Source of the DNA: Patescibacteria group bacterium
GTDB taxonomy: Bacteria > Patescibacteriota > Patescibacteriia > 2-01-FULL-39-33
Length of the DNA stretch: 64,000 bases
Direction of reading: 5' to 3'
NCBI GenBank assembly: GCA_041650895.1
Contig: JBAZKF010000001.1
Span: 829,181 to 893,180, forward strand
The notes under the pieces were generated by a model that searched no databases, was not told the origin of the DNA, and was given only the letters and a program-made list of their open reading frames with translations. Every line of letters starts with the position of its first letter. Within the stretch, counting starts at the first letter, position 1. Below are positions 5,680 to 41,406 of the stretch, piece after piece. Both the position numbers and the translations under genes were made by a program.

Positions 5680-5931
5680 AATATCTATAAAAAACAGTAA
5701 AAATATTTTCGGTTAAATTGTTTAAAATTAGCCAAGTTATCCGAAGGATCCCATTCCGGAATTGGGATTTTTTCATTCTCTGCCAACCGCTTGCTTATTG
5801 AACGTGAGCTCTCGTCTGGCACTAATGAACTTTGGTAATTTTCGCTGAAATTCAATGTTTTAATCGTTAAATTTTATTAAATATATAATTTTGATTCTTA
5901 ATTCTTAATTTAAATTTGTAACTATTCAGTT

Positions 5932-6360
5932 ATGCCTACAATAAATCAATTACTCAAAAAGGGACGCAAACCCAAGATTGTCAAATCTAAGACGCCTGAC
6001 ATTCAGACGACTTTGGATAGTTTGCATCGCCGTAAACATACCATGCAGAAAGGCAACCCCTTCAAACGTGGCGTGTGTACGGTTGTAAGAACCACTACGC
6101 CGAAAAAGCCGAACTCCGCTTTGCGTAAAATCGCCCGCGTCCGTTTGTCTAATGGCCAAGAGGTTACTGCTTATATTCCCGGCATCGGCCATAATCTGCA
6201 GGAGCACTCCATTGTCATGGTGCGTGGCGGCAGGGTTAAGGATTTGCCTGGTGTCAGATATCATATTGTCCGCGGCGTTTATGATTCCGCCGGTGTGGCT
6301 AATCGCAAGCGCGGTCGTAGCTTGTATGGAATGAAGAAAGAGAAGAAGGCAGCCAAGTAA
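5932..6360 (+). CDS. rpsL: 30S ribosomal protein S12 (with ~15-aa N-terminal-region insertion)
   Basis: MPTINQL..KGR...KSK.P...[57 protein letters not shown]. Confidence 0.95.
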
Positions 6361-6476
6361 TTACGAATTTCAAATTACTGATTACTAATTTTCATGTTTA
6401 ATCGCTAATAATTTCGTAAGTGTAATTTGAAGTTTAATTCGTAATTCTTAATTCGTAATTCTTAATTGAATAACAT

Positions 6477-6944
6477 ATGAGAGGTAAACCAGCAACAAAA
6501 AGAGTGATTGCCCCCGACGAGAAATATAGTCGCGAGGATATCGCTAAGTTCATCAATTATATTATGGAGCGCGGCAAAAAATCGGTCGCCAAAAATATCG
6601 TTTACGAGGCCTTGGAAATTATTTCCGATAAGACTAAAGTTGATCCTTTAGTTGTGTTTGATACGGCCATTAAGAATGCCGCTCCAACCGTAGAAATCAA
6701 GGGTCGCCGCGTTGGTGGCGCCAACTATCAAGTGCCGATGGCTGTTCGTCCTTCCCGCAGCTATACTTTGGGCTGCCGTTGGATTATCGGCGCCGCTAAA
6801 GCCAAGAAAGGCCGGCGTATGGCCATTAAGTTGGCGGAGGAGTTAACCGCCGCTTACAATAATGAAGGTGCCGCTATCAAAAAGAAACAGGATACTTACA
6901 GAATGGCTGAAGCTAACCGCGCCTTTGCGCATTTTTCCAGATAA
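6477..6944 (+). CDS. rpsG: 30S ribosomal protein S7
   Basis: Conserved S7 sequence (GKK..A..I...A......TVE.K.RRVGGANYQVP..V...R). Confidence 0.95.
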   Translation: MRGKPATKRVIAPDEKYSREDIAKFINYIMERGKKSVAKNIVYEALEIISDKTKVDPLVVFDTAIKNAAPTVEIKGRRVGGANYQVPMAVRPSRSYTLGCRWIIGAAKAKKGRRMAIKLAEELTAAYNNEGAAIKKKQDTYRMAEANRAFAHFSR

Positions 6945-7034
6945 AAGTAATAAATAATACTTAATAAGTAACCAGTACTTTTAAAATAATATAGTCAAAT
7001 AATCAATAAGATAGCCACAAAAGGAGATAGATTA

Positions 7035-7307
7035 ATGGGCGGGAAAAACACTGTTAGGGAACTTCAAGAGAGACTGAATGTTATTGAAAGGCAGATTAAA
7101 AAAATACAGGCGGATGCTGGGAAAAATATTAAGTCTGCTCGAAAAAGGTATCGCCAAATACAAAGACAGATTAGGCAATGTCAGGTTGCCTGTAAACATG
7201 GCTGGGTAGAACAAGGTTTTGACGCGAATTGTGTTTACTATTCATGCATTAAATGTGGTCGAGAAAATAAAATAGTAAGGACACGCACTGAATATAAACC
7301 TTATTGA
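7035..7307 (+). CDS. Small coiled-coil / zinc-ribbon protein (CxxC...CxxC)
   Basis: 90-aa ORF with strong SD AAAGGAG, CQVAC...CIKC pair. Inserted between rpsG and fusA. Confidence 0.5.
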   Translation: MGGKNTVRELQERLNVIERQIKKIQADAGKNIKSARKRYRQIQRQIRQCQVACKHGWVEQGFDANCVYYSCIKCGRENKIVRTRTEYKPY

Positions 7308-7316
7308 TTATTTTTT

Positions 7317-7351
7317 GAGGCGATAGTCCGTGTTTTCGCCTCTTCCAAAAA
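7317..7351 (+). promoter_or_regulatory. Conserved hairpin element copy A (GAGGCGA...TCGCCTC + TTCCAAAAA)
   Basis: 7-bp stem. Near-identical unit recurs at 7884-7918 with a compensatory base change. Confidence 0.4.
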
Positions 7352-7489
7352 TATTTAGGATTTTTAATATTTATTATTTGTATTCAAAACGCGAATGCAA
7401 GAAATATTGTGCCGATTCTTGGTGGGAATAGCAAATCCTCGTAATTTTGAACCTTAAAAGAAAAAATCAACTGACAGGAGGGAAAAGCA

Positions 7490-7810
7490 ATGGAAGTTAG
7501 CCGGGCTGAACTGGGGGTCAGTATCAGCAAATTAGAATTGGATTCCTTGACGGTAAAAATTGGTCAGTTCATTGGCTATGATGGCGGAGAAGTTAAGTTT
7601 AGATTTTCGTCCCGTTTATGCCTGAATGATAATTTTGATCATCCCATTTTGCATACCGAAGCCGTATTTAAAACTCCTGAAGAAGCAACTGAGTGGGGCG
7701 ATAGGTTATTGGATCTATTAAAAGGATTACCGCCGAAATCTCATACTTTTAGTAAAGGCCAGGTCGATCCCGATAAACAGAATAGGGTAATTATTTTAAG
7801 ATTGCCTTAA
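7490..7810 (+). CDS. Hypothetical protein
   Basis: 106-aa ORF with strong SD CAGGAGGG, no recognisable domain. Second insertion in the str operon. Confidence 0.5.
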   Translation: MEVSRAELGVSISKLELDSLTVKIGQFIGYDGGEVKFRFSSRLCLNDNFDHPILHTEAVFKTPEEATEWGDRLLDLLKGLPPKSHTFSKGQVDPDKQNRVIILRLP

Positions 7811-7883
7811 TATTATTGACAACTTCGAGAACCTGTAAAAAATATGGAAAAAGGTAATGGAAATGCTAAGCAGTTGATTTTTC

Positions 7884-7918
7884 GAGGTGGCAGCTCGTGC
7901 TTCCGCCTCTTCCAAAAA
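7884..7918 (+). promoter_or_regulatory. Conserved hairpin element copy B (GAGGTGG...CCGCCTC + TTCCAAAAA)
   Basis: Matches the CGTG(T/C)TT(T/C)CGCCTCTTCCAAAAA core of copy A at 22/24 positions, with the stem preserved by a T-G wobble. Confidence 0.4.
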
Positions 7919-7996
7919 GTTTTATAAAATTTAAATATTTATCAGTATTATCATTAAAATTAGTAATCATTAATTCGTAATTTGTAATTAACCAGT

Positions 7997-10129
7997 ATGC
8001 CCCGTAAAACACCCTTAGAAAGAATTAGAAACATTGGTATTATCGCCCACATTGATGCGGGCAAGACTACCGTATCAGAGCGCATTCTTTTTTATACCGG
8101 AAAGAAGCATAAGATCGGTGAAGTCCATGAAGGTGAAGCCACTATGGACTGGATGGAACAGGAACGCGAACGCGGTATTACCATTACATCCGCCGCTACC
8201 ACTTGTTATTGGCCTAACGCCGATTGGCTGGGCGGTCAAGATATCCAAATCAACTTAATTGATACCCCAGGCCACGTGGACTTTACTGCTGAAGTGGAGC
8301 GCTCTTTGCGCGTCTTGGATGGCGGTGTCATTGTTTTTGACGGCGTGGCCGGCGTGGAACCGCAATCTGAAACCGTCTGGCGTCAATCAGAGAAATATCA
8401 TGTGCCCAAACTTGGTTTCATTAATAAAATGGATCGCATGGGCGCAAACTTCTATAATGATCTAAAATCAATCTATGATCGTTTGACTCCTCATGCCCAT
8501 CCTATCCAGTTGCCGATCGGCGCCGCTGAGACTTTTACCGGCATCATTGATTTGCTTGAAATGAAAGCCGAGGTTTACAAGGATGATTTGGGAACCAAAT
8601 GGGAAATCACCGACGTGCCTGCCGATGAAGCGGAACGCGCTAAAAAATATCGCCACGAGTTAGTGGAAGCTATTGTGGAAACTGACGAAGCCTTGATGGA
8701 AAAATATTTGGCCGGTGAAGAGATCTCGGTAATTGATTTGAAGAAGGCATTGAGGAAAGCCACTATTGCTAATAAGCTTATACCGATATTATGCGGTAGC
8801 GCCTTAAAAAACAAAGGCGTGCAATTTTTGCTGAATGCCGTAGCCGAATACCTGCCTAATCCTTTGGAGGTTCCGGCTCCTATTGGCCACAGTGTTGAAG
8901 ATGAGACAAAAGAAATACCTTTAGTTGTCTCTGATGATGTGCCGTTGGCCGGTTTGGCATTTAAGATTGCTACCGATCCCTTCGTCGGCAAATTGGTATT
9001 TTATCGCGTATATTCCGGCGTTTTGAAATCCGGCTCTTATATTATTAATAACAAAACCGGCAATAAGGAACGCATCGGTCGTATTTTGCGCATGCACGCT
9101 AATTCGCGCGAAGAGGTTGATGAGGTATACGCCGGAGAAATCGCCGCCTTAGTCGGCATTAAGGATGTTACTACCGGTAATACTCTGTCTGATCCGTCTT
9201 TCCCTATACTTTTGGAATCAATTAAATTTCCCGATCCGGTTATTGATATCGCTATCGAGCCTAAAACTAAGGCCGATCAAGAAAAGATGGCTTTGGCTCT
9301 ATCCAAGTTGGCAGAAGAGGATCCGACTTTCCGCGTTCACACTGATGAAGAAACCGGCCAAACAATCATCTCCGGTATGGGCGAGTTGCATCTGGATATT
9401 ATTGTAGATCGCATGAAACGTGAGTTTAAAGTAGAAGCCAATATTGGCAAGCCCCAGGTCGCCTATCGTGAAACTATTAAAGGCAAGGCCGAAGCTGAAG
9501 GCAAATATATCCGCCAATCCGGCGGTCGTGGCCAATACGGCCATTGCTGGTTGCGTGTGGAACCGTCCGAACCTAATCAGGGTTTTGTTTTTGCTGATGA
9601 AGTTAAAGGTGGTGTTGTGCCTCGCGAATTTATTAAGCCGATTGAAAAGGGCGCCAGGGAAGCGACAGAGCGAGGTATTCTGGCCGGTTATCCCTTGATT
9701 GATGTCAAAGTCACCGTTTATGACGGTTCTTACCATGAGGTTGATTCGTCCGAAGCCGCCTTTAAGATTGCCGCCTCAATGGCTTTGCAGGACGCCGCCA
9801 AGCGCGCCACCCCGGTCATCTTGGAACCGGTGATGAAAGTCGAAGTTACTACCCCGGAGCAGTTCATGGGCGATGTTATCGGTGATTTGAATGCTCGTCG
9901 CGCTGTCATTAATTCTATGGAAGATCGAGGTGTCGGAGCTTCGGCCGTTAAGGTCATTAGCGCGCAAGTGCCGTTGGCCGAGATGTTCGGCTACGCCACT
10001 ATCGTGCGTTCCATGACCCAGGGTCGCGCTAATTACTCTATGGAGTTTTCTCGCTATATGGAAGTGCCGAAGAATGTGGAGATGAAGATCATTGAAGGTC
10101 GCCAGGGCAAAAAAGAAGAAAGACGCTAA
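7997..10129 (+). CDS. fusA: Elongation factor G
   Basis: [17 protein letters not shown]1 motif, DTPGHVDF, full-length 710 aa. Confidence 0.95.
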
Positions 10130-10294
10130 AGATTTTAAATATAAAAAATACTCCGATAATTGTCGGGGTGTTTTTTTATATTAATTCGTTTATAATCAAG
10201 ATTAAAATTTTATTAAATATTAAAATAAGGTTATTAATTATTTGTGGTAGGTGGTTTTTATGTTATAATAGGGTTGTTATAATAAGCTATAGTT

Positions 10295-10549
10295 ATGCAT
10301 AAATCATTTGAAAGAACCCTTATCGGTCCTTATCGCGATATCGCCAGGGAACAGATGCAGCAAAGCAGAGAACCGGAAGTTACCAGTAAAGACAAAGCAG
10401 AACTTGAAATGGTGTTAAATTGGCATCTTGAGAATAGGGCTAAGCAGTCATCTTTGGAGAGGGGTACTGTTAAGGGGAAGCAAAAGACTCTCAGTAATCA
10501 AAGAGAAATTTTTGAAATTCAAAAAAAGAAACAGAAGTTGGTGGAATAG
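10295..10549 (+). CDS. Hypothetical protein; 5' part of a gene interrupted by an in-frame TAG
   Basis: Same frame as ORF 10682-11401. The 44 codons after TAG 10547-10549 are open and the downstream ORF has no ATG near its beginning. Confidence 0.4.
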   Translation: MHKSFERTLIGPYRDIAREQMQQSREPEVTSKDKAELEMVLNWHLENRAKQSSLERGTVKGKQKTLSNQREIFEIQKKKQKLVE

Positions 10550-10681
10550 CTGGAAAATGAGAGGGTCAAATTAAATAATCCTGACTATCGCCCGGAAAGA
10601 ATTCCCGGAAGTCGTGAAGTCATTGCCGAAGGAGATCAGTATTATGTTATTGAGGAGGACGGCGGTAGGGTCCCGATAACT

Positions 10682-11401
10682 TTGGGAGAAATAATTACTG
10701 ATCAGAGATTGGGTTTGAAATATTATTTGGATTCGGCAAGTATTTCCAGAGCCGTTAGGAAAAGATATATTTTTGAGAGAGTAAAAGGCCAATTGCAGGA
10801 TTTATTGGATTGTCAGATTATTTTGGATCAGCCGGAAATGGCTCCCGCCGTTGTGATTAAAAAAACTATAATTAACGGAAAGCGTAAATTTTTGGATAAT
10901 AATAAGGGTTTTATTGCGGAAATCATGGTAACTAATTTTTTGGATAAATTATCCTGGGATTTGGACGCTGATTTTGAATTGATTAGGACTGATGTTTACG
11001 AAGACGCAAAAAATAAGATTGATTTCGCTATTAGGCGCAAGCGTCATTATCGAGGCGTCAAAATTGAGAATGAAGAAATTGATAGCCAACGGCCAGCCGC
11101 TAAATTAGGTTTGGGTATTCAATTTACCATTAAAAAGGAAGGATTAGGAAGAAAACGTAAACAAGTTCAAGGAATTAGAGAAACAGTAAAAGAGGGAGGA
11201 GAATTGGACGATATTGTTTTAGTCAGGGTGCCATTAGAGAGTTTAAACATCATTTTTTCTCAGTGGGTAGCGGACGGTCGTCAGCCCGGCGGACCGGACA
11301 AGCTTTGGGATACGGCGATTAAACACGCTATCATTGGGGGTGTATTGAAGGGTCTGATGAGTCCCGAAGAAATTCAAGAGATTAAGGATAAGGTTAAATA
11401 A
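10682..11401 (+). CDS. Hypothetical protein; 3' part of TAG-interrupted gene (possible pseudogene)
   Basis: Long ORF whose first in-frame ATG lies ~52 codons in. Continuous with 10295-10549 across a single TAG. Confidence 0.4.
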   Translation: MGEIITDQRLGLKYYLDSASISRAVRKRYIFERVKGQLQDLLDCQIILDQPEMAPAVVIKKTIINGKRKFLDNNKGFIAEIMVTNFLDKLSWDLDADFELIRTDVYEDAKNKIDFAIRRKRHYRGVKIENEEIDSQRPAAKLGLGIQFTIKKEGLGRKRKQVQGIRETVKEGGELDDIVLVRVPLESLNIIFSQWVADGRQPGGPDKLWDTAIKHAIIGGVLKGLMSPEEIQEIKDKVK

Positions 11402-11415
11402 AGATCAGCGGTAAA

Positions 11416-11446
11416 AATACTCCGGCAGCTGTGCCGGAGTATTTTT
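11416..11446 (+). terminator. Rho-independent terminator (TACTCCGGCA/TGCCGGAGTA stem + T-run)
   Basis: Perfect 10-bp stem, loop GCTG, then TTTTTGTTT. Confidence 0.6.
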
Positions 11447-11501
11447 GTTTAAAAACTTGAAAAAAATAGCATATTTTAGTACTATTAAGGCAATATAATA
11501 T

Positions 11502-14195
11502 ATGTCAAAAATAGAATTAGCCAAGGCGTATGACGCCGAATCTGTCGAAGACGGAATCTACCGCAAATGGGAAGAATCCGGTTATTTTAATCCCGATAAT
11601 CTGCCGGGTGAACGGCCGGAGAAATTTGTCGTCTCCATGCCCCCGCCCAATGTTACCGGCGTTTTACACTTGGGTCATGCCCTGGAGAATTCTATTATGG
11701 ATATCGAGTTGCGTTACCAGCGACTCAAGGGTAAGCGAGCATTACTTGTGCCTGGAACAGATCATGCGGCTGTGGCTACTCAAGCCAGGGTGGAAGATGA
11801 ACTCAAAAAACAAGGCATCAAGCATCCGCGTCAAGAGTTGGGTCGCGAGGAACTGCTGAAAAAAATTCGCGAGTATGCAGAAGAAAAAAAATCAGTTATT
11901 TTATCGCAGATAAAAAAAATAGGTACATCCTGCGATTGGTCGCGTTTAGCTTATACTTTTGATGAACCTCGTACCAAGGCGGTGAATGAATTATTCCGTC
12001 GGATGTTTGCCGATGGTTTGATTTATCGCGGTTATCGCGTAGTCAATTGGTCGGTTAAGGGGCAATCCACCTGCTCTGATGATGAGTTGGTATATGAAAC
12101 CGTTAAGACTACGGTTTATACTTTTAAGTATAGTCAGGATTTTCCTATCGCTATTGCCACCACTCGTCCGGAAACCAAATTGGGTGATACGGCTGTGGCA
12201 GTTAATCCTGATGATGATAGATATAAACAATACATCGGCCAGAAGTTTACGGTAGATGTTGGTGCGGCTAAGCCGCTTGTCATTACGATTATTGCCGACA
12301 AAAATGTTGATGTGAATTATGGCACGGGCGCGGTCGGCGTTACGCCGGCGCACAGCCAGATTGATTTTGAGATGTATGAGCAGAATAAAGATATTGGTAT
12401 TATTCCGGTTATCGGTAAAGACGGTCGGATGTTACCTGTCGCGGGCAAAGATTATGATGGTTTGACTATTAATGAAGCCCGGGAAAAATTCGTAGATTGG
12501 CTTAAAGCTAATCATCTCTACATTAAAGAAGAGGAGGTTGAACATAATGTCGGCAAGTCGGACAGGTTCGGCGATGTGGCTGAAGCGCTCCCCATGGAGC
12601 AATGGTTTGTGGATGTAAAAAAGCAGATTCCCGGCCGCGGTAAAACCTTAAAGGATTTGATGCGCGAAGCCGTAACCATCGGCCATAATCATGACAAAAA
12701 CAAAATTATCAAGATTACGCCGGAGAGATTCCACAATACTTATTTGCATTGGATTGATAATTTACGCGATTGGTGCATCTCCCGTCAAGTTTGGTGGGGT
12801 CACCGCATACCCGTGTGGTATTGCGACGATTGCGGAGAAATATTTTACTCTGATCAACCGGTAGACAAATGTCCCAAATGCGACAACAGCCAGGTACGTC
12901 AAGATGAGGATACCTTAGATACTTGGTTTTCTTCGGGTGCCTGGACTTTTTCCACTTTGGGCTGGCCGGAGCAAACTGACGATTTAAAAAAATACCATCC
13001 GACAACTTGGATGCAAATGGGTTATGAAATTTTATTTTTCTGGATGGCCAGAATGATCCTGATGACCACTTATGCTCTTGATGACATTCCTTTCAAAGAT
13101 GTTTATATTCATGGCATTTTACGCGCCAAAGACGGCCGTAAGTTTTCTAAATCTTTGGGTAATGGCCTAGATCCGTTAGAAATTATTGAAAAATACGGCA
13201 CTGACGCTTTACGTTTGTCTTTAATTAAGGGTACGACCGCCGGCAACGATGCCAGGTTTTATGAAGAGAAGGTGGAGGCGGCGAGGAATTTTGTCAATAA
13301 ATTATGGAATATTTCCCGCTATATCCTGTCTACCGTGGAAAATCCTCGGTTGGTAGAAGTGGCGCCGGAACCCATTACCCTAGCTGATAAATGGTTATTG
13401 GATAAGTTAAATGCTAAAATCTACGAAGCCACCAAGCAATTGGACAATTGTGAGTTCTCTTTGGCCAGTGAGATTTTGTATGACTTTACTTGGAGTGATT
13501 TTGCCGATTGGTATTTGGAGGTCGCCAAAATAGAAAAAGGTAAGGATGATATTCTGCTTTATGTTCTGCAAACGCTATTAAGACTCTGGCATCCGTATAT
13601 GCCGTTTATCACTGAAGAGATTTGGGACAAATTAGCGGACGAGAGAATATTAATGGTGGAGTCCTGGCCGGTTAGTAAAGAAGTGGGATTATGGGATAAG
13701 ATAAAAGAGATAGCATATTTGTCAGTCAGCGAAGGTGGCAATGATTTTGAAGTTGTCAAAGAGTTAATCATAGCGATTAGGAATCTGCGCGCGGAAAATA
13801 AGATTGAACCAGCTAAGTTGATTGATATTGTAATTATTAGCGCTAAAAAGGAATTATTGGAGTCGCAAGCAAAGATTATTAAGCGTCTGGCACGGCTGCA
13901 AAATTTGGCGATTGATTCTGTCGGAGTCAAACCGGAAAATTCCGCGGTTAAAGTTATTGAAGGATCGGAGATTTATTTAGTCTTGGCCGGGCTGATCAAT
14001 ATTGGAGCAGAAAAGGAACGCTTGGCTAAAGAAATTATGGAGACGGAAAAATACTTGAGCGGTTTGCAAAGCAAGATGGATAATGAGGAATTTGTGAAAA
14101 ATGCACCCAAAGCAGTGGTGGAAAAAGAAAAAGAAAAGTTGACTGTTGCCGAAGAGAAGCTTGCTAAATTACGCGAGCAAGTCAATAGTCTATAG
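11502..14195 (+). CDS. valS: Valine--tRNA ligase
   Basis: Class I HIGH motif (PNVTGVLHLGHAL), KMSKS variant KFSKSLGN, C-terminal coiled-coil, 897 aa. Stop is TAG. Confidence 0.95.
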   Translation: MSKIELAKAYDAESVEDGIYRKWEESGYFNPDNLPGERPEKFVVSMPPPNVTGVLHLGHALENSIMDIELRYQRLKGKRALLVPGTDHAAVATQARVEDELKKQGIKHPRQELGREELLKKIREYAEEKKSVILSQIKKIGTSCDWSRLAYTFDEPRTKAVNELFRRMFADGLIYRGYRVVNWSVKGQSTCSDDELVYETVKTTVYTFKYSQDFPIAIATTRPETKLGDTAVAVNPDDDRYKQYIGQKFTVDVGAAKPLVITIIADKNVDVNYGTGAVGVTPAHSQIDFEMYEQNKDIGIIPVIGKDGRMLPVAGKDYDGLTINEAREKFVDWLKANHLYIKEEEVEHNVGKSDRFGDVAEALPMEQWFVDVKKQIPGRGKTLKDLMREAVTIGHNHDKNKIIKITPERFHNTYLHWIDNLRDWCISRQVWWGHRIPVWYCDDCGEIFYSDQPVDKCPKCDNSQVRQDEDTLDTWFSSGAWTFSTLGWPEQTDDLKKYHPTTWMQMGYEILFFWMARMILMTTYALDDIPFKDVYIHGILRAKDGRKFSKSLGNGLDPLEIIEKYGTDALRLSLIKGTTAGNDARFYEEKVEAARNFVNKLWNISRYILSTVENPRLVEVAPEPITLADKWLLDKLNAKIYEATKQLDNCEFSLASEILYDFTWSDFADWYLEVAKIEKGKDDILLYVLQTLLRLWHPYMPFITEEIWDKLADERILMVESWPVSKEVGLWDKIKEIAYLSVSEGGNDFEVVKELIIAIRNLRAENKIEPAKLIDIVIISAKKELLESQAKIIKRLARLQNLAIDSVGVKPENSAVKVIEGSEIYLVLAGLINIGAEKERLAKEIMETEKYLSGLQSKMDNEEFVKNAPKAVVEKEKEKLTVAEEKLAKLREQVNSL

Positions 14196-14291
14196 CTCAC
14201 TATTTTTTACGATATTTTCATATTCATTTTTATAAAAAGTTAGTGCAACACCTGTTTGTTAGCGTCTTTATTAAATACATAATTTTTTGAA

Positions 14292-14330
14292 TAAAAAAGA
14301 AACCCCGCACTGCGCAAGCAGGGCGGGGAG
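14292..14330. terminator. GC-rich hairpin between convergent valS and the minus-strand gene; T-run is on the minus-strand side
   Basis: CCCCGCACTGCGCAAGCAGGGCGGGG nested palindrome. A-run upstream on plus strand, which is a T-run for the minus-strand gene. Confidence 0.5.
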
Positions 14331-14338
14331 TTGTGTAA

Positions 14339-15043
14339 TTAGGCGATCTCGGCGGCTTCCGAGCGCATTTTATCAAAGGCGCTTTTTTTGGTGGCGTGAG
14401 ATCCCCATTTAACATAAGAACTATGACTCATCTGCTGGGCTTTTGCAATATTGCCTCGGCAGATCATGAGGCAGCAGCCAAACAAGTCAAATAGATCGCG
14501 CGGGGCGTTGCGATGGCCGTACTTTATTTTTCCCGCAACGATTTGTTTTTTCCCGTCAGTGATAAGCTTTTGGCGGTATTGTCTTGCCCGATATATGGTA
14601 GCTAACGCCCCTATGGTTTCGGCGGCTCCCAATTGTACGCCGATTTCCAGGCAGACGAAGTCATACCAATAGCCATACCCGAATGGCAACGGCTTGAATA
14701 AATACCGACAGCCGTCGATGGTGTCGACATACTCTGACAATTCTTCCGCTTTGGGAATGCGCGGTATTTTCTGGAAAAAAATGTCGGCTTCAATAAAGTA
14801 TTCTTCCGCTGATTTTAGTATTCCGTCGAAACACGGGGCGTCGGTCAGCAGTACGCTTCCCGTGCATTGTAGCGCGGCTAAGTCGGCTCTGCCGATTTTG
14901 TCAGCTAAGACGTTCATGGCTTCCAAGAAAAGCTCATCCGCGATATGCAGGGCGAAGTTATTGTTGTTGAAATCGCTTGCATTTCCTTCGCCTTCGTTTA
15001 TGAACACAACATGCAGGTCGCGGCGTGGTCCGTATTCTCTCAT
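14339..15043 (-). CDS. Hypothetical protein
   Basis: 234-aa ORF with AAGGAG SD 6 nt upstream, convergent with valS. No domain confidently recognised. Confidence 0.55.
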   Translation of the reverse strand: MREYGPRRDLHVVFINEGEGNASDFNNNNFALHIADELFLEAMNVLADKIGRADLAALQCTGSVLLTDAPCFDGILKSAEEYFIEADIFFQKIPRIPKAEELSEYVDTIDGCRYLFKPLPFGYGYWYDFVCLEIGVQLGAAETIGALATIYRARQYRQKLITDGKKQIVAGKIKYGHRNAPRDLFDLFGCCLMICRGNIAKAQQMSHSSYVKWGSHATKKSAFDKMRSEAAEIA

Positions 15044-15347
15044 TCTCTGATACTCCTTGTTCTTCGGACTTTAATAAGGAACAGATAGAACCGCCATCGT
15101 CCACATAAACGATTTTGGTTTCGGATATAGCCAATCGCCCGACAAAGACGATTAACATAGTATTATATCAAATAGTCATGCTTTTGTCAATGTTTTTAAC
15201 AAATAGTTATCCACACCCTTTAATTTAGTCGTTACTACTTTACAAAGTCCTGCTTTTACTATATTATTATTAAATCAACGCTAAATTATTGCCAGTTAAA
15301 GCGGTTAGACAGTATTCAGCCGCTAATTTATCAACTCAGCAATTAAT

Positions 15348-15704
15348 ATGCCTAATCTCACAAAATTAGTAAATTTACTCAAAAAAACAGGTGATAAGGC
15401 CATTGTTTTGGATGAGCACGGTGAACCGGGCTATGTTATTATGACTGTCGCTGATTATGAAGATTTAATTTTAGGTAAATCCGGCGTCTCGGGCTTGACA
15501 GAAGACGAACTTTTAGATAAAATAAATCGTGATATCGCCATTTGGAAGGATAATCAAGAATTAAGAGAATTATCAGTTGATCAGTACAATTTTGCTAAAG
15601 ACATCGGAGTTGTCCCTGGTGATGAAGTTTTCTCTGAATTTAGCCAAAATAGTCAAGAGATTCAGGATGAGGATCGATATTATTTTGAGCCGGTAAGTGG
15701 TTAA
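15348..15704 (+). CDS. Hypothetical protein; N-terminus weakly resembles Phd/YefM antitoxin fold, acidic C-terminus
   Basis: KAIVLDEHGEPGYVIMTVADYEDL resembles the Phd/YefM N-terminal pattern. No toxin partner adjacent. Confidence 0.4.
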   Translation: MPNLTKLVNLLKKTGDKAIVLDEHGEPGYVIMTVADYEDLILGKSGVSGLTEDELLDKINRDIAIWKDNQELRELSVDQYNFAKDIGVVPGDEVFSEFSQNSQEIQDEDRYYFEPVSG

Positions 15705-15749
15705 ATTGATTGTGAGGTAACTGTGGAAAAAACATAGTACCGCTCCCTC

Positions 15750-15777
15750 TTGATTTTTTTTGTTTTTGTGATATAAT
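15750..15777 (+). promoter_or_regulatory. Promoter TTGATT-16bp-TGaTATAAT (extended -10) upstream of tuf
   Basis: Hexamers about 100 nt upstream of the tuf start. Confidence 0.45.
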
Positions 15778-15876
15778 AGTCAAGCTAATAAAAATAATAA
15801 ATAATACTAAATAATCTTGAGTTCTGGCTAAAACTCCCCGGATTTGAGGGCGAGGAACTCAAAAAGGATAACTAAC

Positions 15877-17061
15877 ATGGCAGAAGCATTCAACAGAAGC
15901 AAGCCCCACGTTAATGTGGGTACCATCGGTCACGTCGACCACGGCAAAACCACTTTGACCGCGGCTATTTTGGCTACTTTAAGCGCTCGCGGTTTTACCG
16001 CCCAGCACAAATCAGTCGATCAGATTGACGCCGCTCCGGAAGAAAAAGCCCGCGGTATCACTATTGCGACTGCTCACGTAGAATACGAAACTGAAAAGCG
16101 CCACTATGCTCATGTGGATTGCCCAGGTCATGCTGATTATATCAAGAACATGATCACTGGCGCCGCCCAGATGGACGGAGCTATTTTGGTTGTGGCCGCC
16201 ACTGATGGTCCTATGCCTCAGACTAGAGAGCATATCCTTTTGGCTTATCAAGTCGGCGTGCCTTATATCGTTGTTTTCATTAACAAGGTTGATCAAGCCG
16301 ATCCGGAAATGATTGATTTAGTAGAAGGTGAAATCCGCGAATTGTTGACCAAGTACAATTATCCCGGCGAAACCACCCCGATTATCAAGGGTTCTGCTTT
16401 GAAGGCCTTAGAAAATCCGAATGGTTCTGACGCTGATTGCATTATAGAGTTAATGAACGCCTTGGATACTTATATCCCTGAGCCGCAGCGCGCTACCGAC
16501 CAGTCTTTCTTAATGCCGATTGAAGATGTCTTCTCTATTGAAGGCCGCGGTACCGTTGTTACCGGTAGAATTGAACGCGGTATAATTAAGACTAACGAGG
16601 AAGTAGAAATCGTTGGTTTGGCCGATACTAAGAAAACCGTTGTTACCGGCATCGAAATGTTTAATAAATCTTTAGATGAAGGCAGAGCTGGTGATAATGC
16701 TGGCATTCTCTTGCGCGGTACTAAGAAAGAAGAAGTTGAGCGTGGCCAAGTTTTGGCCAAACCGGGTTCCATTACCCCGCACTCAGAGTTTGAAGCCGAA
16801 GTCTATATCTTGTCTAAAGAAGAAGGCGGACGCCACAAACCCTTCTTTAATGGCTATAAACCACAATTCTATGTCAGAACAACTGACGTAACCGGTGAAA
16901 TCACTTTGCCGGCCGGAACGGAAATGGTTATGCCTGGAGATACCGTTAATGTTATCGTCAAACTAGGTAAAACCGTTGCCATGGAAGAGAAAATGAAATT
17001 CGCTATTCGTGAAGGTGGCCATACTGTCGGCGCCGGCGTTGTAACGAAGATCGTTAAATAA
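15877..17061 (+). CDS. tuf: Elongation factor Tu
   Basis: [38 protein letters not shown] at 15877 chosen over the track's upstream alternative start. Confidence 0.95.
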
Positions 17062-22690: not shown

Positions 22691-22718
22691 AATTACGGAT
22701 TACGGATTACGGATTACG
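22691..22718 (+). repeat. Tandem heptamer repeat (CGGATTA x3 + CGGCTTA) in rpsC-rplP spacer, followed by an inverted copy (CCGTAAT)
   Basis: Repeat read directly in sequence. Belongs to the ATTACG/CGTAAT motif family. Confidence 0.6.
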
Positions 22719-22795
22719 GCTTAGGCCTAATTTACAATCCGTAATTGTCAGAATAATGATTCGTAGTTCGTAATTTGAAATTCGTAATTGAATAT

Positions 22796-41303: not shown

Positions 41304-41406
41304 AACCAATTACAAATCAATAATTGCTAATTATAATATTCAGTTGTATCTTTGTTTCGTAATTCGTAATTTGAAATTCGTAATCTTATGAGTGATTATT
41401 GATAAT

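Follow-up and report, generated by a model that had tools for sequence, protein, structure and literature searches.

Few gene arrays in bacteria are considered as stable as the ribosomal-protein operons, whose genes serve as markers of vertical phylogeny for uncultured lineages. How, then, did two small genes come to lie between rpsG and fusA in the str operon of a Patescibacteria group bacterium, and how can they reside there without harm? We analyzed a 64,000-nucleotide stretch of its genome (the window; contig JBAZKF010000001.1, positions 829,181 to 893,180), in which the 1052-nt rpsG-fusA interval (6945-7996) carries two small open reading frames (ORFs), ORF1 (7035-7307) and ORF2 (7490-7810), and two hairpins (window coordinates; features lie on the forward strand unless marked otherwise). 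A preliminary description, made from the sequence of this stretch, had reported the ORFs, their Shine-Dalgarno (SD) sequences, repeat units of ∼60 bp and the hairpins, and we found all of these in place. It overlooked the main structural feature, a covarying inverted repeat that encloses each ORF. Based on comparison with related loci, the interval is a lineage-specific island whose small accessory genes vary between strains, are exchanged horizontally, and duplicate in tandem, a conclusion much firmer than the mechanism that we propose for it.

We gathered 80 str loci, 73 of which include both rpsG and fusA (these and further loci are numbered here with the prefix L). The S7 protein of the window is closest to those of “Candidatus Buchananbacteria” and other Patescibacteria species representatives (75 to 79% identical). 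In the closest relatives (L001 and L003 to L005), rpsG and fusA are separated by 19 to 228 nt with no intervening ORF, compared with 1052 nt in the window. The inserted ORFs also differ in composition from their neighbors, with a GC content at third codon positions (GC3) of 0.30 for ORF1 and 0.36 for ORF2, versus 0.48 to 0.53 for rpsL, rpsG, and fusA and ∼0.45 for the window; these low values look like those of recent arrivals. Gene adjacency in relatives and composition relative to the neighbors were both comparisons that the preliminary description had proposed, and both set the inserted genes apart.

Comparison with locus L081, from a close relative with an ORF2 orthologue, dates the insertion relative to the operon around it. 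The number of synonymous substitutions per synonymous site (dS) between the window and L081 is 0.54 for rpsL, 0.52 for rpsG, 0.92 for fusA, and 1.19 for valS but only 0.14 for ORF2 (Fisher P values of 5e-4 to 1e-10 against the flanking genes). Noncoding sequence within the interval is similarly close, with 92% identity from hairpin 1 to ORF2 and 95% from hairpin 2 to fusA, whereas the rpsL-rpsG spacer is ∼60% identical and essentially unalignable. Based on the low dS of ORF2 and the near identity of the module spacers, we conclude that the ORF2 module is much younger than the split between the two genomes. The converse pattern was seen between L081 and L084, whose fusA 5′ ends are 97.7% identical and whose gap contents are very different: the L084 gap holds one ORF related to ORF B of L081 (33% identical) and two inverted copies of a palindromic element of ∼125 nt.

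The L081 gap contains, in order, ORF A, ORF B, a hairpin, ORF C (the ORF2 orthologue, 88% identical), ORF D, and a second hairpin, with the same leader before A and before C. Given this repetition of leader, ORF(s), and hairpin, we conclude that hairpin copies arise by tandem duplication of that unit. The two hairpins of the window are thus paralogous copies, a relationship clearer in L081, and not the products of two independent acquisitions. The four L081 ORFs are themselves paralogues with a common core motif (L-x-T-x2-v-F-x-S-x-e-E-A-x2-W). Gap contents differ from genome to genome: we found an ORF1-type gene alone in L088 and L002, an A-type gene alone in L210 and L211, a B-type gene alone in L084, L089, and L213, ORF1 plus C in the window, and A through D in L081. 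A spacer of the str operon is here a hot spot of horizontal exchange with strain-level turnover, and analyses of metagenome-assembled genomes should not treat the rpsG-fusA interval as a neutral spacer.

The same gap has been invaded elsewhere in the Patescibacteria, where it is a general hot spot. Across Patescibacteria loci, the rpsG-fusA distance ranges from 4 to 2983 nt and is at least 300 nt in 21 of 73; gaps in non-Patescibacteria (Atribacteria and Chlorobiota) measure 25 to 73 nt. Cargo is unrelated between loci with long gaps and includes a 23S rRNA intervening-sequence protein (PF05635; L078), a PDDEXK_3 protein (L028), ParE (L059), a marginal YafQ-like match (L025; E value of 0.001, below Pfam's cut-off), a tRNA-binding domain (L006), a PaaX/Cas2-like protein (L063), DUF4116 (L029), an aspartyl protease, and membrane proteins. 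Four inserts (L078, 6456-6934; L028, 1192-1680; L029, 6465-7074; L010, 6465-7691) are enclosed by terminal inverted repeats with exact arms of 12 to 43 nt, which are predicted to form long terminal stems of 25 to 45 bp, and their minimum-energy folds contain 39 to 55 long-range pairs. In sequence and predicted fold, they look like intervening-sequence elements placed in an mRNA spacer.

In the window and its relatives, the modules end in a shared hairpin. The two repeat units of the window (7310-7367 and 7877-7934; 58 nt, 76% identical) contain hairpin 1 (7317-7342; GAGGCGA / TCGCCUC stem, 12-nt loop) and hairpin 2 (7884-7909; GAGGUGG / CCGCCUC stem with an inner 3-bp helix), both identified by folding and by a covariance model. 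Each has a 7-bp stem with 5 to 6 G-C pairs, and the folding energies of 76-nt fragments are −13.8 and −17.4 kcal/mol, respectively (z about −2). A 16-mer shared by the two units is, taken alone, not significant within the window. The preliminary description had recognized one stem difference, C-G versus T-G, and called it compensatory; there are in fact two, of which that at pair 5 (C-G to U.G) is a one-sided wobble and that at pair 7 (A-U to G-C), which was overlooked, is compensatory.

Starting from the ORF2 homologue, from a scan of metagenomes for the hairpin pattern, and from the surroundings of additional family members, we found 11 hairpin copies in 9 genomes: two each in the window and L081 (which stands for L081/82/83) and one each in L084, L088, L002, L089, L210, L211, and L213. 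All 11 lie directly after the last small ORF of their module, within the rpsG-fusA gap. Apart from one apparent chance match in L085, the pattern scan likewise detected the hairpin in the rpsG-fusA context only. The basal stem GAGGCG/CGCCUC is nearly invariant, and its changes preserve pairing. Pair 7 is A-U, G-C, or G.U and pair 5 is C-G or U.G; the switch from A-U to G-C at pair 7 is seen in hairpin 2 of the window and in L002, and L211, read directly, shows the same exchange at pair 2 (GGGGCG/CGCCCC). Compensatory change in the stem therefore stands as a claim, on the strength of pair 7 across copies and pair 2 of L211. In an alignment of seven copies, 98.6% of stem cells were paired, against 42 to 63% with the partners slid, while loop length varied from 5 to 33 nt. 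A covariance model built on nine copies scored these training copies at E values of 1e-11 to 1e-15 and recovered the untrained L089 copy at 9e-6 and L211 marginally. It detected no further copy in 904 kb of Patescibacteria str-operon neighborhoods, including the 64-kb window. A search for further ORF-plus-hairpin units had been proposed; those found here all lie in the rpsG-fusA gap of relatives.

Both hairpins of the window are followed by the conserved tail TTCCAAAAA (7343-7351 and 7910-7918). The sequence after the stem reads UUCCAAAAA, with no U-run within 0 to 2 nt. A terminator scan called neither of the two and detected a textbook intrinsic terminator (A-tract, 15-pair stem, and T-tract) at 10143-10176, where it closes the operon after fusA. 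Based on the missing U-run and on this terminator, we conclude, in agreement with the preliminary description, that the hairpin is not the ordinary terminator of this genome.

The second shared structure is a helix that brackets each ORF. In module 1, the 5′ arm AAATAATCAATAAG (6997-7010) stops 24 nt short of the ATG, immediately ahead of the SD (AAAGGAG, 7020-7026), and is a perfect 14-nt complement of the 3′ arm CTTATTGATTATTT (7300-7313), which overlaps the TGA stop. In module 2, the 5′ arm AAAAATCAACTG (7462-7473) lies 1 nt 5′ of the SD (CAGGAGGG, 7475-7482) and is a perfect 12-nt complement of the 3′ arm CAGTTGATTTTT (7871-7882). The 3′ arms overlap a present or ancestral TGA stop and end 1 to 3 nt short of the hairpin (3 nt in module 1 and 1 nt in module 2). 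None of 2000 shuffles reached either bracket, and among the 66 ORFs of the window, just these two have a complement of at least 10 nt between leader and 3′ end (background maximum, 9). For each complete module, the bracket helix forms next to the hairpin in the minimum-energy fold as well as in the centroid fold.

Brackets recur in the relatives. Arms of 10 to 14 nt were found in seven of eight modules tested, with 0 to 15 of 2000 shuffles matching them. Across nine modules, 87% of bracket cells were paired, compared with 33 to 57% when one arm was slid. Both sides have changed in 6 of the 14 bracket pairs, and 1 of 500 shuffles equalled the covariation score; the covarying segments (UAAG/CUUA, CUG/CAG, and CCAA/UUGG) fall outside a constant AUCAA/UUGAU core. 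Since the arms change in sequence yet stay complementary, they appear to be kept for base pairing and not as a shared protein-binding sequence.

Each module thus opens with an A-rich 5′ arm and an SD, continues with one or two small ORFs and a U-rich 3′ arm that covers the stop, and closes with a GC-rich hairpin and a UUCCAA tail; the window holds one module of ORF1 type and one of ORF2 type. Our preferred reading, on which we are evenly divided between belief and doubt, is that the modules are intervening-sequence-like or moron-like and that bracket and hairpin are RNA-level signals for processing, stability, or insulation and not terminators. Sequence comparison shows the layout, its conservation and covariation, its confinement to this locus, the horizontal exchange, and the missing terminator features; we infer pairing in RNA, the involvement of a nuclease, and an effect on expression. 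A single transcript would begin upstream of rpsL and extend as far as the terminator that follows fusA. Within it, the 5′ and 3′ arms would pair and close the inserted ORF into an RNA domain of its own, on which the hairpin, 1 to 3 nt away, would stack to form a quasi-continuous helix of ∼20 to 24 bp. One or both of two routes may follow: a double-strand-specific nuclease, with an RNase III type as candidate, could excise the module, as happens to 23S rRNA intervening sequences, or the clamp could shield the small mRNA against RNases, as in hbs of Bacillus subtilis. The hairpin would then guard one or both of the ends so created, namely the 3′ end of the module and the 5′ end of the RNA for the next cistron (ORF2 or fusA). 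The foreign gene would be expressed from its own SD within a core operon, with the fusA message neither terminated nor destabilized, and this design of 5′/3′ clamp and hairpin may explain the harmless residence of foreign genes in an essential operon.

Several points weigh against this reading. The bracket helices are short (12 to 14 bp), AU-rich, and worth about −12 kcal/mol, and typical RNase III substrates, at ∼20 bp or more, are longer unless the bracket is stacked on the hairpin. A fold of the whole 1.65-kb region swaps the inner brackets for other pairings, and the 3′ arm would be opened by any ribosome that terminates at the stop codon. The L211 locus retains the hairpin without an obvious bracket. 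Because many of the 9 to 11 copies are related by recent duplication or transfer and are not independent, the covariation counts overstate the number of events. That the arms pair in RNA rather than in DNA is also something we infer from the sequence. Finally, a run of 6 to 7 T lies 8 to 9 nt past the stem in five relatives, where partial termination is possible.

Those T-runs, in L084, L088, L002, L213, and L089, bear on a rather unlikely alternative, in which the hairpins are weak, noncanonical intrinsic terminators or attenuators that end most insert transcripts, set read-through into fusA, and form the terminator half of a moron-like unit. Like a Rho-independent terminator, every copy is a GC-rich stem-loop soon after a stop codon (6 to 23 nt); unlike one, it has no adjacent U-tract in the window, L081, or L210, and the scan that found the terminator after fusA called neither hairpin of the window. 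The stretch that separates stem from T-run (UUCCAAUUA) is conserved too, although a terminator would have no need of that, and the covarying bracket is left unexplained. Downstream, moreover, lies the essential fusA, without a recognizable promoter of its own: none is strong immediately upstream, and no match to the promoter consensus of at least 9/12 occurs in 7919-7996, between hairpin 2 and the fusA start. Phage morons (PMC2920897) too are extra genes of atypical composition, inserted between genes adjacent in relatives, followed by a stem-loop, variable between close relatives, and clustered at hot-spot positions; the modules differ in sitting in a cellular core operon and in the hairpin without a U-run, and of promoters they show weak candidate sites only. 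A phage origin was considered and rejected: we found no relatives of ORF1 or ORF2 in viral contigs (IMG/VR) and no significant PHROG match, and among the matches listed there (at least 120) to a loosened hairpin pattern, none had the T-rich/TTGAT, AT-rich context.

It is improbable that the inverted repeats and hairpin act instead in DNA, as terminal inverted repeats, as an attC-like folded strand, or as an IS200/IS605-like end next to a TTGAT target. The modules have indeed moved between lineages and been swapped between strains, and the boundary of replaced cargo (ORF1 versus A+B) falls at the junction of TTGAT and hairpin. TTGAT, the target of ISDra2, directly precedes most hairpin copies, and inserts at the same site in other Patescibacteria have perfect inverted repeats of 29 to 43 nt. 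Yet the arms vary among copies while remaining complementary, and the recently exchanged tract (about 7370-7996) neither begins nor ends at them. The neighbors are housekeeping genes in the window and in L081 alike, with no recombinase, integrase, transposase, or TnpA/TnpB encoded within ∼7 kb in either, and all 11 modules have the same orientation with no sign of inversion; on these grounds, we rejected integron, transposon, and invertible-segment readings. Homologous recombination through the very conserved flanks would be a sufficient route for exchange.

The preliminary description had suggested cassette-like acquisition. This holds insofar as the inserts are accessory and horizontally exchanged, but they are not of integron type. 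As in an integron, small co-oriented ORFs without recognizable promoters of their own form a strain-variable array, each followed by an imperfect palindrome; in contrast to integron cassettes, there are no R″/R′ core sites, no attC of 57 to 141 nt (the hairpin measures just 26 nt), and no integrase or attI, the hairpin sequence is conserved, and the site is fixed. Arms resembling AATCAAC / GTTGATT lie 290 to 400 nt apart around the ORF, each one mismatch from the attC core consensus (RYYYAAC ... GTTRRRY).

We consider it just as improbable that the hairpin and its flanks serve as an operator through which a host RNA-binding protein controls the translation of fusA. S7 autoregulates the str operon of Escherichia coli, and it would be the candidate here, restoring a coupling of S7 and elongation factor G (EF-G) that the insertion had broken. 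The near invariance of the GAGGCG/CGCCUC stem and UCCAA tail across cargo types points to a constant host factor rather than a module protein, and the hairpin is always upstream of the next cistron. However, relatives without inserted ORFs (L001 and L003 to L005) have no such hairpin before fusA, the hairpin is duplicated before ORF2 as well as before fusA, and Rfam returned no match at its gathering threshold or at E values up to 1 and nothing relevant at permissive thresholds. Sequestration of an SD by the CCUC of the hairpin, as in icaR, was rejected by inspection, which gave a generic GGAG/CUCC match only, with no consistent extension across modules. That the repeats are functionless, alike through evident tandem duplication (the L081 leader and hairpin recur around both ORF pairs) and recent transfer of several copies, with hairpin and inverted repeats as neutral leftovers, is very improbable, since the hairpin persists where fusA 5′ ends are only 52 to 72% identical to the window at third codon positions and other spacers are unalignable, L089 keeps its stem despite a 21-nt loop insertion, and almost none of the stem and bracket changes, which are compensatory or wobble-compatible, are disruptive.

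Under the preferred reading, in which bracket and hairpin act in RNA, the closest parallels are intervening sequences of rRNA and mRNAs clamped by pairing of their 5′ and 3′ ends; the system is related to these known kinds but is not a member of a known family. Intervening sequences in 23S rRNA occur in Salmonella, Leptospira, and Coxiella, some with an S23p ORF, and to our knowledge, selfish elements of this type have so far been described in rRNA genes only and not in an mRNA spacer. The Coxiella element is 428 to 444 nt long, and RNase III cleaves its 28-bp terminal stem (PMC4990558). Our modules resemble such elements as selfish, horizontally spread inserts of 0.3 to 0.7 kb in a conserved, highly transcribed region of the translation apparatus, with a small ORF within terminal inverted repeats (PMC4990558), and the same gap in other Patescibacteria holds ORF families of intervening sequences (PF05635 and PDDEXK_3). 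They differ in lying in the mRNA spacer between rpsG and fusA rather than in helix 25 or 45 of 23S rRNA, in stems of 12 to 14 bp compared with 28 bp in Coxiella, and in the additional conserved hairpin. Their ORFs, which have strong SDs and are under purifying selection, are neither S23p nor PDDEXK_3.

We tentatively extend the parallel to the possibility of “mRNA intervening sequences”: selfish inserts of the intervening-sequence type would have colonized the str mRNA spacer across the Patescibacteria, would be cut out or insulated by their own bracket and hairpin, and would spread between lineages via the ultraconserved sequences of rpsG and fusA on either side. The cargo in the window's clade would be a dedicated, fast-diversifying family of small proteins that occurs in no other place, with the translation machinery or the RNA of the element itself as its possible target. 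If the RNA-level mechanism is true, the concept of the intervening sequence widens from rRNA to mRNA, and the modules represent a compact, portable “insulated expression module” and define two new families of small proteins linked to the S7/EF-G locus.

In clamped mRNAs of the hbs and icaR type, pairing controls the access of RNase Y, J, or III. The B. subtilis hbs mRNA has a 14-bp pairing between 5′ and 3′ untranslated regions that modulates RNase Y cleavage (PMC5737220), and the 5′/3′ pairing in icaR of Staphylococcus aureus makes an RNase III substrate (PMC3868564). The modules share with these a small gene with a strong SD, a helix of 12 to 14 bp that joins the leader to the 3′ end, and a stem-loop on the 3′ side, here recognized computationally. 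Those are single chromosomal genes with mapped transcripts, whereas ours is a mobile, duplicated module in a polycistronic operon with predicted pairing. The hairpins also recall repetitive extragenic palindromic (REP) sequences and bacterial interspersed mosaic elements, which are GC-rich stem-loops without U-runs between cistrons of one operon and, in the case of REP, stabilize upstream mRNA. REP elements, however, are dispersed in many copies per genome, in contrast to the two copies in 64 kb found here, both in the rpsG-fusA gap.

ORF1 encodes a 90-amino-acid protein with a pI of 10, a coiled coil, and a C-x-H-x-W...C-x2-C (C-H-C-C) zinc knuckle in its translation; the preliminary description had named a zinc ribbon and a coiled coil. 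It is not an orphan, as positional homologues occur in L088 (57% identical) and L002, and the zinc knuckle is conserved in both. The L088 homologue (2251-2523) has an in-frame TGA at codon 11 with no alternative start downstream, which reflects either recent pseudogenization, an error in sequencing, or recoding. ORF2 encodes 106 amino acids, and its ratio of nonsynonymous to synonymous substitution rates (dN/dS) between the window and L081 is 0.29, indicating purifying selection and, therefore, a real gene. Given the strong SDs and the purifying selection, both ORFs are probably expressed.

Neither ORF matched a family in Pfam, NCBIfam, PHROGs, PADLOC, or PDB sequences beyond coiled-coil noise. 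We ran an exhaustive profile search for the ORF2 family over 1.84 billion representative proteins and obtained 16 matches in total, ∼10 of them small members and the remainder long repeat proteins that share the core motif only. Every small member with a retrievable context sits directly downstream of rpsG. In the short contig L214 (204-949), an A-type member still follows rpsG and overlaps the start of the next ORF; the latter stands in place of the hairpin and fusA and is a putative glycosyltransferase by its sequence. The family can thus persist after local rearrangement.

The repeats of the long protein P0015 and of the GIY-YIG nuclease P0017 are NUMOD1 / I-HmuI-like DNA-binding modules, and the ORF2 core motif is similar to the opening strand and helix of the NUMOD-type repeats in GIY-YIG homing endonucleases (18 columns; hhalign probability, 86%). 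We rejected kinship with homing endonucleases, as the 18-column motif alone aligns and no member has a nuclease domain or a Pfam match. Two AlphaFold runs gave low-confidence models (predicted local distance difference test scores of 54 and 61) with the order alpha-beta-beta-beta-alpha, the topology of the double-stranded-RNA-binding domain. A Foldseek search of these models against the PDB found nothing at E values up to 0.001; double-stranded-RNA-binding domains recur among the nonsignificant matches (template modeling scores of 0.3 to 0.48), which are not usable as evidence.

The SDs of ORF1 and ORF2 are unusual for this genome. The Patescibacteria translation apparatus is already known to be peculiar, with few SDs and missing ribosomal proteins. 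According to a published survey, some of the Parcubacteria have lost the anti-SD motif (PMC9297842). In the window, only ∼8 of 67 ORFs have a well-placed SD (AGGAG/GGAGG 4 to 6 nt before the start) and ∼85% have none. All SD-bearing ORFs, including ORF1 and ORF2, are without a Pfam domain, and all recognizable housekeeping genes are without an SD. Other SD-bearing ORFs include those at 819, 14339(-), 35247, 38513(-), 38854(-), and 42450. Among the SD-less genes are rpsL (S12; 5932-6360; PF00164, E value of 1.6e-36), which is the first gene of the str operon, rpsG (S7; 6477-6944; PF00177, E value of 6.4e-57), and fusA (EF-G; 7997-10129; Pfam domains checked on the L081 orthologue), so the contrast that had been drawn between the strong SDs of the two ORFs and the flanking genes was accurate.

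Within the interval, we detected weak promoter-like sites at 6961-6990 (9/12) and 7816-7843 (10/12). The latter, TTGACA-16-AAAAAT, has a perfect −35 hexamer and lies between the ORF2 stop and hairpin 2, in the spacer before the 3′ arm (7811-7870); L081 shares the hexamer, directly ahead of its ORF D. As L081 has its fourth paralogue, D, at the corresponding place, this spacer is probably the remainder after a deletion. A 33-amino-acid ORF from a GTG at 7330 in the hairpin loop was discarded, its frame not being conserved in L081 or L084.

The palindromic element of ∼125 nt noted above (GTCGCGCC..ATCATGGCCAAATTTT...AAAATTGGCACAATATTTT..GGCGC) occurs in the rpsG-fusA gap of relatives in either orientation. 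It is at 4045-4175 in L001, at about 2600-2750 in L088, and, on the reverse strand, in the two inverted copies that flank the L084 module. Comparison with these intact copies identified a truncated remnant in the window at 7383-7440. The element may be a miniature mobile element or a structured RNA.

An outer pair of 39-nt inverted repeats with TAATTCG-type heptads encloses rpsG and both modules. Its left arm (6358-6396) is 87% complementary to its right arm, the heptad-bearing fusA leader (7952-7990); the duplex is worth −28 kcal/mol and appears in the minimum-energy fold of 6345-8000, and it is not kept in L081. Farther downstream, tuf (15844-17061) is not next to fusA, so the classical str operon is split in the window; the intervening 10130-15843 contains the terminator, two domain-less ORFs, valS (11502-14195), and two more unknown ORFs. 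Heptads (TAATTCG/TAATTCT), direct and inverted, are found in several spacers of the window (43 matches versus 15.6 expected), with further arrays at 5892-5910, 6435-6467, 22691-22790, and 41308-41385.

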